DNA of 17,126 nucleotides, from assembly GCA_964510585.1 (NCBI GenBank), contig CAZECW010000008.1, forward strand, positions 1 through 17,126, given 5' to 3'. The translations under genes were made by a program, and so were the position numbers. Shown here piece after piece: positions 4,202-5,866 of this stretch. Every line of letters begins with the position of its first letter. Within the stretch, counting starts at the first letter, position 1. Origin of the DNA: an uncultured archaeon. GTDB lineage: Archaea > Asgardarchaeota > Jordiarchaeia > Jordiarchaeales > Jordiarchaeaceae. The notes beneath the pieces were generated by a model. The model did not search any database. It was given only the letters and a program-made list of their open reading frames with translations, and was not told the origin of the DNA.

Positions 4202-4417
4202 AACTATCCAACCAGCGTCAATTACAGACTGTTGACTACAGAAAAAGTTTACTCTCACTATAAAAATTTAATTCCCGTAAGTTAAGAGAATAGGAGAGGG
4301 AAACAAAAAATATTAATGTTTACTCCGAATCGAAGAAATAAGTTAGGAATTGTGGGTTCACCCATTTTAACATTTCTAATAAAAAGGAAAGCCCACATCC
4401 CCAAAGAATTAAGTCTT

Positions 4418-4978
4418 TTAGAATAATTCAGGTTTCTTCAGATGGAAATGGTACACGAATTGGCATACCGGATCTCCTCGGGATCGGCAGAGCACCTCAT
4501 TGCAGGTAACTGAATCTGCACCCCAATCCTCTAATCTGTGTTCTTCAATCCATTCCATGATTCCGGACAGTGTATTACACATAAACAATTGGGGTGATGG
4601 AGAAATCAAATCTTTACAGAGGGGACAGTCCGCTATAGTGTAGGTTATATGTACATCGCTTCCTTCTTTCTTAAATTCGGTTTTATCAAAAGTTGTTCCC
4701 GTGAAGAATTTGAATCCAAGATTATAAGCGGACTTGGGGTCAGCCAATTCTTCTAGACTTTTTGCGGGTCTCTGAGTTGCAGCTAGATATCTGGTATAGA
4801 TAAATTCACCCATGTCTCTCCCTATTTTTTTTAACTCTTGGTTAACTATTGCTGGATCCCTATGAATTTTCATAAAATAGCTAATTAGAGCTTGTACCAA
4901 GGATCTATAGACGAGTATGTTAATTTTTTCGGCTTTTATTCTCCAGGCTAGTACTCCTTTTACACCCAAATTTTTCAC
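4418..4978 (-). CDS. V4R-domain protein with Bet3/TRAPP-like features
   Basis: It has a V4R Cys pattern (DCPLC, MCN, EVLCRSRGDPVCQF) and the N-terminal helices VNQELKKIGRDMG. The GTG start overlaps the upstream stop (GTGA). Confidence 0.8.
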   Translation of the reverse strand: MKNLGVKGVLAWRIKAEKINILVYRSLVQALISYFMKIHRDPAIVNQELKKIGRDMGEFIYTRYLAATQRPAKSLEELADPKSAYNLGFKFFTGTTFDKTEFKKEGSDVHITYTIADCPLCKDLISPSPQLFMCNTLSGIMEWIEEHRLEDWGADSVTCNEVLCRSRGDPVCQFVYHFHLKKPELF

Positions 4979-5733
4979 CTCTTTATTTTTCTAAATCCTG
5001 AAACATATTTTATCGCTCCCTTTGCTCCAAAATCGCCGGTTGTTATCATTACTCGCGCTTTAGATATGCCAAGCTCCTCTGCTATATCATCAACAGTATG
5101 GTCGCCGTCACAGAGCTGGAGAATAGCTATCGCCATTGGTTCCTTTACCTTTTTCAAAATATTTTTGTCGACAAGTACGGGATAACTCACAGTTATGGTT
5201 ACTTCGGCTCCTCCTTCTTGGGAGGAGGACGCTAAAACTGGCTCGCTGGGTTTTTCTACCTCTATTTCCTCAGCGTAAGCCTCCTCTGGAATAGACTTGG
5301 CTATTTCAAGTTCTTCTGCTGCAGAAACTGCTTGCACAACTTTAAGAGGCGCCTCAGGAACTTTTTCGGCTACTGCTTTGACCTGCGGGGCGGGGAGCTC
5401 TTTTTCCAGCTCTTTGAACAAGTCCGTGTAATTCTCTTCTATGCGTTTACCAGCGACAATTAGAACCCCTTCCTTTTCATAGCTCTCTATAGCAAGGATT
5501 ATACGGGGAGAAGCCTTATAAATCAGTAGATTGCTTTTTGGCAACTTTTTAAGCTGGTAATCCCCCGGACTCCAAACTGGGAAAACTCTACTTAGCTGTT
5601 TGACGGCGGCCACAGATTCTGCCATAAGTGAAGAGTAGAGTATATTGCCACTATCATCTAGAAACGCCAAGTAACATTTCTTGGGCATAAACTTCGCAAT
5701 ATTTTCGGCGATTTCTTTAAATCTCTTCTCCAT
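4975..5733 (-). CDS. Roadblock/longin-like N-terminal domain, acidic linker and C-terminal winged helix
   Basis: Residues 1-110 show an alpha-beta-beta-alpha-beta-beta-beta-alpha hydrophobic pattern, followed by an E/A/P-rich linker. The C-terminus YPVL...ILQLCDGDHTVDDIAEELGISKARV is a wHTH. Confidence 0.65.
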   Translation of the reverse strand: MEKRFKEIAENIAKFMPKKCYLAFLDDSGNILYSSLMAESVAAVKQLSRVFPVWSPGDYQLKKLPKSNLLIYKASPRIILAIESYEKEGVLIVAGKRIEENYTDLFKELEKELPAPQVKAVAEKVPEAPLKVVQAVSAAEELEIAKSIPEEAYAEEIEVEKPSEPVLASSSQEGGAEVTITVSYPVLVDKNILKKVKEPMAIAILQLCDGDHTVDDIAEELGISKARVMITTGDFGAKGAIKYVSGFRKIKR

Positions 5734-5866
5734 GGTTACTGCCTGTCCAAATTTATGCTTTAGTATATATTAAAAATATTTAACATATTAAATCTTTTTG
5801 GAGCGCAAAATTCATAAAAAGACTCCAAAAAAGCAAAACCCCCAGCCTTCAGAAGTTCCCAACCTT

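Follow-up and report, generated by a model that had tools for sequence, protein, structure and literature searches.

A Bet3-like protein with a predicted V4R-type zinc motif, encoded next to a Roadblock–winged-helix gene in a Jord-/Freyarchaeial Asgard archaeon

The DNA analysed here, referred to as the window, is the whole stretch of 17,126 nucleotides of contig CAZECW010000008.1 (assembly GCA_964510585.1), and the element under study is a gene on its minus strand encoding a small protein that resembles Bet3 (TRAPPC3), the core of the TRAPP complexes, which activate Rab1 and Rab11. A first-pass annotation, made from the sequence letters, described this protein as an intermediate between prokaryotic V4R proteins and eukaryotic Bet3 and named it a proto-TRAPP subunit. 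The gene lies in a single open frame at 4418–4978, which would encode 186 amino acids (aa) if counted from the GTG at 4978. The motifs quoted in that annotation all fall within this open reading frame (ORF): INILVYRSLVQAL, VNQELKKIGRDMGEFIYTRYLA, LGFKFFTG, CPLC (C118–C121), C164-x7-C172 and LFMCNTLSGIME. The genome assembly that contains the window is 3.78 Mb in size and 96% complete, and its source organism is a Jord-/Freyarchaeial Asgard archaeon. Near-identical DNA is present in hot-spring metagenomes; the sequencing runs listed with matching DNA are hot-spring metagenome DNA only, with no RNA run among them.

A search of 5.8 billion proteins identified 16 close homologues with 66–95% identity, each 183–192 aa in length, from sources labelled Jordarchaeaceae, Freyarchaeota/Freyarchaeum or 'Lokiarchaeia'. 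The first residues are MGVKG or LGVKG in all 16 and, because the homologues begin at this aligned position, the true start is probably the TTG at 4969, which would give a protein of 183 aa (Table 1). This codon sits 5 nt past the sequence AGGTGA, in which the upstream gene's TGA stop also lies. The family alignment has 59 invariant columns. No second copy of the gene was found in the window's genome by BLAST-level and Pfam TRAPP searches. A complete genome of the same genus carries three Bet3-like copies (G038:C1:3195087-3196334 and 3021652-3022200), two of which are adjacent, and recent paralogue pairs could mimic eukaryotic TRAPP heterodimers.

Table 1. Features of the Bet3-like locus, in window coordinates
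Feature	Position	Strand	Basis
TRAPPC3/Bet3-like gene (probable extent)	4418..4969	-	ORF list, homologue starts, DNA reading
Bet3-like part, residues 15–142: two long N-terminal helices, helix 3, first beta-hairpin	4553..4936	-	HMMER alignment to 6aq3, site table, model
V4R-like part, residues 112–176	4451..4645	-	Pfam V4R, E 3.6e-5, 24.2 bits
CPLC (C118, C121), CxxC typical of Asgard TRAPPC3-like proteins	4616..4627	-	Family alignment, site table
C134, start of helix 135–146; counterpart of XylR C149	4577..4579	-	Alignment, model
E161-x2-C164-x7-C172, C-terminal beta-hairpin; counterparts XylR E172, C175, C183	4463..4498	-	Alignment, site table
AGGTGA, Shine-Dalgarno-like, with the upstream gene's TGA stop inside	4975..4980	-	Inferred from sequence
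Upstream partner, 252 aa: Roadblock/LC7 (1–111), disordered acidic linker (118–174), C-terminal winged helix (177–251)	4975..5733	-	AF2 model
AT-rich TATA-like box, about 30–42 nt before the partner ATG, within the 133 nt separating the partner gene from the deacetylase gene	5763..5775	-	Inferred from sequence
T-rich run about 30 nt past the stop, possible archaeal terminator	4380..4390	-	Inferred from sequence

The single protein was searched against all PDB sequences with phmmer, and the matches were TRAPPC3/Bet3 chains only, the top one being Naegleria TRAPPC3 (6aq3, E-value 6.3e-6) over residues 15–142. The first-pass annotation had described a colinear likeness to human TRAPPC3; with the Naegleria protein as reference the likeness to TRAPPC3 is beyond chance, but for the human protein taken alone it does not hold, as 1sz7 was matched at an E-value of only 0.36 in the single-protein search. 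The family profile matched 15 Bet3/TRAPPC3 PDB sequences and, with E-values up to 10 considered, one other, unrelated chain at 0.78. The E-values of these matches were 1.5e-9 for Naegleria 6aq3, 5e-5 for yeast, 6e-5 for fly and 2e-3 to 7e-3 for mammals, and the TRAPPC3 proteins of Thorarchaeota (Thor-TRAPPC3) were matched at 6.9e-4 (7yh3) and 2.9e-3 (7yh2). No V4R chain was among the PDB sequence matches of either the single protein or the family profile.

Profile-to-profile comparison by hhalign, a check of the kind proposed in the first-pass annotation, favours eukaryotic Bet3 (16 diverse sequences; probability 97.6%, E 4.8e-12) over the ten V4R domains of the window's genome (76.8%, E 2.1e-5). 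The family also aligned with Thor clades C (97.2%) and B (99.6%), and the E-value of the crystallised Thor clade against eukaryotic Bet3 was 3.4e-7, a weaker match than that of the window family. Pfam models gave two matches that divide the protein between them. The TRAPP model (PF04051) covers the N-terminal part at residues 26–141 (4556–4903; E 1.1e-4), scoring 22.5 bits against a gathering cut-off of 27, and the V4R model (PF02830) covers the C-terminal part, where its score (Table 1) lies below the cut-off of 31. A precomputed PF04051 match is present on six of the close homologues. In a scan of the whole genome the TRAPP model touches the Bet3-like locus only, and ten other loci pass the V4R gathering cut-off with 32.7–68.4 bits.

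Only 40 proteins were found when 1.84 billion representatives were searched with the family profile. Two of these are Bet3-like, and one of them, P0079, is a eukaryotic TRAPPC3 according to its relatives in apicomplexans, plants and fungi. Two more are fusions of a longin-like N-terminal domain with a TRAPPC3-like C-terminal domain (P0067, P0074). A 1123-aa protein named 'plastocyanin' by JGI (P0081) has five separate stretches that match the profile in the region of helix 27–78 only (E 4e-5); it may be a repeat protein of Bet3-like N-terminal helices or a coiled-coil artefact.

The AF2 model of the protein (predicted local distance difference test score, pLDDT, 83.5) has the Bet3 fold, in which a pair of long helices at the N-terminus packs against a four-stranded sheet. 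Foldseek against the PDB placed mouse Bet3 first (1wc8, E 1.5e-7) and matched Thor-TRAPPC3 at 8.4e-7; the top 33 PDB rows are all Bet3/TRAPPC3, either eukaryotic or from Thorarchaeota, with E-values of 1.5e-7 to 2.7e-4 and TM-scores up to 0.79. Structural re-alignment with VIA covered 998 chains and gave Z-scores of 16.6 (7yh3_D; root-mean-square deviation 2.6 Å over 151 residues) and 16.1 (7yh2_A) to Thor-TRAPPC3 and 16.3–16.5 to eukaryotic Bet3 (16.5 for 1wc9 and 6aq3; also 2j3w_E and 1sz7), the latter over 152–158 residues at 2.4–2.9 Å. The Z-score to TPC6 was 14.2 and to chain G of TRAPPII 12.6–12.9. The V4R structures followed at 10.1–10.6 for MopR/PoxR/DmpR and 8.9 for euryarchaeal MJ1460, so that the structural check proposed at the outset also sets Bet3 and Thor-TRAPPC3 well above V4R.

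The likeness to Bet3 can be followed down to single residues. Motif positions that the Bet3-like part has in common with eukaryotic Bet3 are K18, N20, N46, G53, G57, Y64-L65, A79, G88, K90, G94 and P119; those other than G53 and G57 set Bet3 and the window protein apart from V4R (position 64 being Tyr or Phe) and are found in most Asgard relatives. The C-terminal part carries a different signature. The V4R zinc site of XylR, PoxR, MopR and DmpR is formed by a helix Cys and a hairpin Glu-x2-Cys-x7-Cys (bioRxiv 10.1101/2021.01.17.427014). In the model of the window protein, C134 opens the helix 135–146, and E161, C164 and C172 lie on the hairpin 154–164/171–180. These four residues, as well as C118 and C121 of the CPLC motif, are invariant in the family, and the set corresponds to the C/E/C/C site of the four sensor proteins and to the zinc-binding cysteines of Thor-TRAPPC3. 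E161, C164 and C172 are kept in 10 of the 10 V4R domains of the window's genome and C134 in half of them. Both Thor TRAPPC3 clades have Gln in place of Glu161 and read Q-x2-C-x7-C, and in eukaryotic Bet3 position 118 is N, 161 is F/L/W, 164 is D and 172 is N/T/Y. The CPLC columns read CxxC in Thor clades B and C, S/x in the V4R domains of the window's genome, most of which lack a pair of this type, and N-P-x-A in eukaryotic Bet3. The claim that the protein keeps cysteines (CPLC and C-x7-C) absent from eukaryotic Bet3 is thus borne out.

Read from the alignment, the complete V4R zinc motif is retained in the form of its ligand residues, with the metal itself predicted. By sequence, the N-terminal two thirds are recognisably Bet3-like and the C-terminal third holds the putative zinc motif and the CxxC. 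Calling the protein an intermediate is therefore fair, with a Bet3-like N-terminal part joined to an unmodified V4R zinc motif and the Asgard CxxC.

Maximum-likelihood trees (LG+C20+F+G4 by posterior mean site frequencies, PMSF; approximately 170 columns) were built with 93 and 103 rows. The rows comprise the Jord/Frey family, 57 other Asgard relatives, 16 eukaryotic Bet3 and the 10 V4R domains of the window's genome, and the 103-row tree includes in addition 10 copies of the crystallised Thor type; bacterial and euryarchaeal V4R and TRAPPC5/C6 sequences are not among the rows. The V4R domains of the window's genome are split from the Asgard TRAPPC3-like proteins and eukaryotic Bet3 with supports of 97/91 and 98/96. 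The Jord/Frey clade has a support of 100/99, and its nearest relatives are a cluster labelled Baldrarchaeia (59% identity) and one more Asgard family. One Thor group in the tree is the crystallised protein (3.7e-78 to 7yh3), and a second Thor paralogue is related (6e-23). Eukaryotic Bet3 is nested among the Asgard proteins, nearest to P0071 (93/90) and then to two Thorarchaeial clades (90/72), and the Jord/Frey clade is placed in a more basal grade with weak support. The tree itself does not favour a clade of Jord/Frey proteins with eukaryotes, although the approximately unbiased (AU) test does not reject it (p 0.091, with a loss of 27.4 log-likelihood units, lnL). The phylogeny, a check proposed in the first-pass annotation, separates the subfamily from the V4R domains of the window's genome and does not place it as the closest sister of eukaryotic Bet3. 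The window protein is thus part of the radiation of Asgard TRAPPC3-like proteins, in which approximately 170 columns are too few to order the subfamilies.

P0071 is a metagenomic TRAPPC3-like protein of 161 aa on a 974-bp ENA contig, with CxxC and E-x2-C-x7-C intact. It joins eukaryotic Bet3 on a long branch with supports of 98/89 and 93/90. Either Bet3 may have its closest prokaryotic relative in P0071, or the grouping may be an artefact of the long branch.

These data bear directly on the possibility that the gene product is an ordinary V4R protein whose likeness to Bet3 reflects nothing beyond the fold known to be common to the superfamily. The slightly higher Pfam score of V4R over TRAPP agrees with this view, as do the source names given to relatives ('V4R domain-containing protein', 'predicted hydrocarbon binding protein') and the AU test, which does not quite reject a position of the Jord/Frey clade next to the V4R root (p 0.056, 10.5 lnL lost). 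Opposed to it are the 15 Bet3/TRAPPC3 structures and zero V4R structures among the PDB sequence matches, the gap of about 6 in Z-score between Bet3 and V4R structures, the hhalign E-values, the N-terminal motifs common to Bet3 and not V4R, and the branch of the tree that separates the V4R domains. This explanation is already largely refuted and is regarded as very improbable. Sequence, profile, fold and tree agree that the protein does not group with the ordinary V4R proteins compared and that its match to Bet3 is the better one.

The protein is best described as a stand-alone protein of approximately 21 kDa that belongs, within the V4R superfamily, to the Asgard TRAPPC3/Bet3-like branch. This description, taken whole with the mechanism set out below, is considered probable, and its identity and fold part is held with high confidence. 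TRAPP-like proteins of Asgard archaea, mentioned in the first-pass annotation, have already been published with crystal structures: two Thorarchaeota TRAPPC3 were crystallised, 7YH2 (AB25) and 7YH3 (SMTZ1-45) (Tran, Akil, Senju, Robinson 2024, Commun Biol 7:273, PMC10933270). The same work reports that Thor-TRAPPC3 binds Zn2+ through four cysteines, forms homodimers like TRAPPC3/C6 and is structurally nearer to eukaryotic TRAPPC3 than to PoxR, and that mouse TRAPPC3 has a hydrogen bond in place of the zinc site. Relatives from Loki and Heimdall lineages were modelled there as well, and one Heimdall fusion of longin and TRAPPC3 was noted (PMC10933270). V4R was proposed as the ancestor of Bet3 by Podar et al. 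2008, as cited in PMC10933270. The window gene represents a sister subfamily within this published protein class, and the idea of a passage from V4R to Bet3 is likewise published.

Thor-TRAPPC3 resembles the window protein in being an Asgard, stand-alone protein (159 aa compared with 183 aa) with the same fold and with the CxxC, helix Cys and C-x7-C. It nevertheless forms a separate subfamily that a single-sequence search with the window protein does not recover (7YH3 is missed), and the window protein keeps Glu161, which is Gln in Thor, and has about 14 extra N-terminal residues (MGVKGVLAWRIKAEK). Eukaryotic Bet3 (PF04051; 1WC8, 1SZ7, 6AQ3, 3CUE) shares with it the fold, a similar length, colinearity over residues 15–142 and the motifs K-x-N, VN, G-x3-G, (Y/F)L, FK-x-F-x-G and P119, but has replaced the zinc ligands that the window protein keeps. 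The V4R domains of XylR/DmpR/MopR/PoxR, MsvR and MJ1460 share the superfamily fold and an identical C...E-x2-C-x7-C motif; the window protein differs from them, and from the other V4R proteins of its genome, in standing alone, with no AAA+, helix-turn-helix (HTH) or KaiC module in its chain. Its Bet3-like N-terminal helices are a further difference from the V4R domains.

The gene directly upstream encodes a protein, here called the partner, in which the AF2 model predicts a Roadblock domain (helix, two strands, helix, three strands, helix) and a C-terminal winged helix (Table 1). Foldseek matched it to a Loki Roadblock protein (8yql, 5.7e-5), MglB and LAMTOR, and over its whole length to entries of the GATOR1/SEA complex that include the NPRL2/NPRL3 subunits. 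Its Pfam matches are weak (HTH_5/HTH_47/DUF742), and in several lineages the winged helix is HTH_47/DUF742-like by Pfam. NPRL2-like proteins in Asgard archaea have been described, in a text that mentions no TRAPP or V4R neighbour (Liu et al. 2020 preprint, 10.1101/2020.10.19.343400). Asgard NPRL2/NPRL3-like proteins and the partner are alike in that the N-terminal domain is of the Roadblock/longin type and a small winged-helix-like domain forms the C-terminus; they differ in that the N-terminal domain of the partner has Roadblock topology, with the helix first, and not that of longin. The partner has one winged helix, and the Thor versions appear to have two. A short paralogue of the Roadblock domain alone, without a winged helix, is encoded elsewhere in the window's genome in a 134-aa frame (G000:C191:17115-17450, L056; E 1.3e-26) and resembles short forms of 181–183 aa from other metagenome-assembled genomes (MAGs; P0041-P0043).

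The spacing between the partner gene and the Bet3-like gene is at most 5 nt, with the Shine-Dalgarno sequence and the stop shared. The TATA-like box before the partner gene and the T-run past the end of the Bet3-like gene (Table 1) are putative signals that fit a bicistronic operon. In five MAGs the locus tags of the partner homologues are consecutive with those of the Bet3-like homologues. A profile scan detected the Bet3-like family in 100 of 301 Asgard genomes, in every sampled member of several families and in none of five other families with at least 11 genomes each. Among 30 loci that were fetched from several Asgard families, 25 have a same-strand ORF directly upstream that matches a hidden Markov model (HMM) built on the partner: the winged-helix HMM in 24 loci and the Roadblock HMM in 1. 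No other ORF in those loci matches the winged-helix HMM. A sister paralogue in Thorarchaeia is comparable in this respect, as the gene immediately upstream of it encodes a C-terminus that matches the same winged-helix HMM. Because the pairing recurs across Asgard families, the two-gene unit is old and widespread in Asgard archaea. This arrangement departs from that of eukaryotic Bet3, since the genomic partner is a Roadblock–winged-helix protein and not a longin subunit, and no TRAPPC1/C4/C5/C6 partners were seen. No published description of the pairing was found in the literature searched, although this search was not exhaustive. A structure prediction of the complex of the two proteins gave a score of 0.00 and a mark of 0.32, which counts neither for nor against binding.

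By analogy to Thor-TRAPPC3 and PoxR/MopR, one structural Zn2+ would tie the C-terminal hairpin of the Bet3-like protein to its helix, the two N-terminal helices would mediate dimerisation, and a hydrophobic pocket would be enclosed within the protein. The gene order suggests that it is co-produced from a two-gene operon with the NPRL2-like Roadblock–winged-helix protein, and the gene order and the fusions together suggest that the two would most likely act jointly as a small scaffold or regulatory complex. Such a complex would plausibly act on one of the many Ras-family GTPases of the genome, which has 24 Ras-family loci. In MglB, Ragulator, GATOR1 and TRAPP, domains of the Roadblock and longin types regulate GTPases, and a GTPase-linked scaffold is considered the most likely function for this reason; a role as GTPase regulator or GTPase-linked scaffold is nonetheless put forward only tentatively.

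A second reading of the gene pair is a transcription regulator split over two chains, in which the V4R-fold protein would sense a hydrophobic molecule or thiol/zinc redox and signal to a DNA-binding winged helix in the partner, in the manner of the V4R domains of XylR/DmpR/MopR and MsvR. The fully retained zinc motif, including the Glu that is Gln in the Thor TRAPPC3 clades, is consistent with such a sensor, as are a weak similarity to MsvR, in its V4R part, by NCBIfam (E 7e-4) and the presence of a true ArsR-HTH and V4R fusion in the same genome, and ligand binding has been argued for the Thor proteins by Tran et al. (PMC10933270). Fold and sequence of the window protein are nearer to Bet3 than to the sensor V4R domains, however. 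The winged helix of the partner has weak ArsR/TrmB/MarR-type matches, but across Asgard lineages it fits the HTH_47/DUF742/PqqD type at least as well as the ArsR/TrmB/AsnC type, and to our knowledge DNA binding is not established for winged helices of the former type. The other domain of the partner has the Roadblock fold, which is typical of proteins that regulate GTPases, and the partner as a whole is built like NPRL2/3. A split regulator is judged unlikely.

Less probable still is that the protein serves as an autonomous carrier of a small molecule or lipid, a zinc-stabilised dimer with a hydrophobic cavity whose neighbouring gene is unrelated or loosely linked. Thor-TRAPPC3 is reported to have a ligand cavity, as are mouse TRAPPC3, which holds palmitate, and PoxR, which holds phenols, and ligand transport has been speculated upon (PMC10933270); the fold also resembles the ligand-binding proteins H-NOX and BcsD. 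The tight pairing with the Roadblock–winged-helix gene over many Asgard families argues instead for a joint function, as do the fused longin-like and TRAPPC3-like proteins.

Several observations weigh against the reading of the gene product as a Bet3-like protein that acts in a GTPase-linked complex. There is no GTPase, longin or other TRAPP-like gene within the 17-kb window. The palmitoylated cysteine of Bet3 is not conserved, as no Cys is found at the position aligned, through 7b6r_C, to the 'R-C' site of Bet3. Both Pfam matches remain under their gathering cut-offs. The backbone of the tree is weak, its rows are limited as described, and the AU tests reject neither a position as sister to the eukaryotes nor one next to the V4R root. 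Asgard proteins expressed in HeLa cells were without membrane targeting, and a ligand-binding role was favoured for them (PMC10933270). The name proto-TRAPP subunit is thus supported as a statement on ancestry and shape, through the likeness to Bet3 at four levels and the zinc motif, and not as a statement on function.

The other genes of the window have metabolic or unrelated products: an acyl-CoA synthetase, an aspartase/fumarase-class lyase, a deacetylase, a DUF6512 protein, Fe-S proteins, a nitroreductase, an enoyl-CoA hydratase, a large glycoside hydrolase and dehydrogenases. A TnpB/Cas12f-like gene with a TNB domain (E 2.5e-18) is truncated by the window edge, so that its 3' end alone is present, at 2–325 on the plus strand. 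Elsewhere in the genome the V4R model touches 13 further loci, including eight paralogues of the KaiC-ATPase/XylR_N/V4R type, the ArsR-V4R fusion and a plain V4R protein of 179 aa. The eight paralogues are 412–566 aa in length with the V4R fold at or near the C-terminus and are located on contigs C76 (17247-23057), C150 (21482-25950), C79 and C105 (L003-L010); C76 holds four of them in tandem and C150 two. Among the four that were scanned, a match to a KaiC-like ATPase is present in three and a match to XylR_N in one, and the group seems to be an expanded family of V4R sensors coupled to ATPases. The fusion of an ArsR-type HTH with V4R is 316 aa in length (G000:C162, L042:134-1081 on the plus strand) and has an MsvR-like architecture, in contrast to the stand-alone Bet3-like protein.

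The descent of Bet3 from prokaryotic V4R proteins is a textbook case of a eukaryotic trafficking part with archaeal roots. Because the protein class and its zinc site are already published, the present locus refines this account and does not change it. It adds a Jord-/Freyarchaeial subfamily whose N-terminal part is as Bet3-like as any Asgard protein compared, and its unaltered Cys/Glu/Cys/Cys motif documents a stage before the site changed, as in the Thor clades, and was then lost in eukaryotes. The main interest lies in the intact V4R-type zinc motif, as predicted from its residues, together with the conserved and apparently undescribed pairing with an NPRL2-like protein. Of these the more useful lead is the conserved operon with the Roadblock–winged-helix protein, which points to a concrete two-protein complex. 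In its boldest form, and with odds that are clearly against it, the proposal is that a GTPase of the Ras superfamily is regulated by a complex of the Bet3-like protein with its partner, that this complex is conserved throughout the Asgard archaea, and that in it the still-intact V4R zinc/ligand site would couple a small-molecule or redox signal to GTPase control. If true, this would be an archaeal forerunner that joins the building blocks of TRAPP (the Bet3 fold) with those of the GATOR1/Ragulator type (Roadblock/longin and winged helix).

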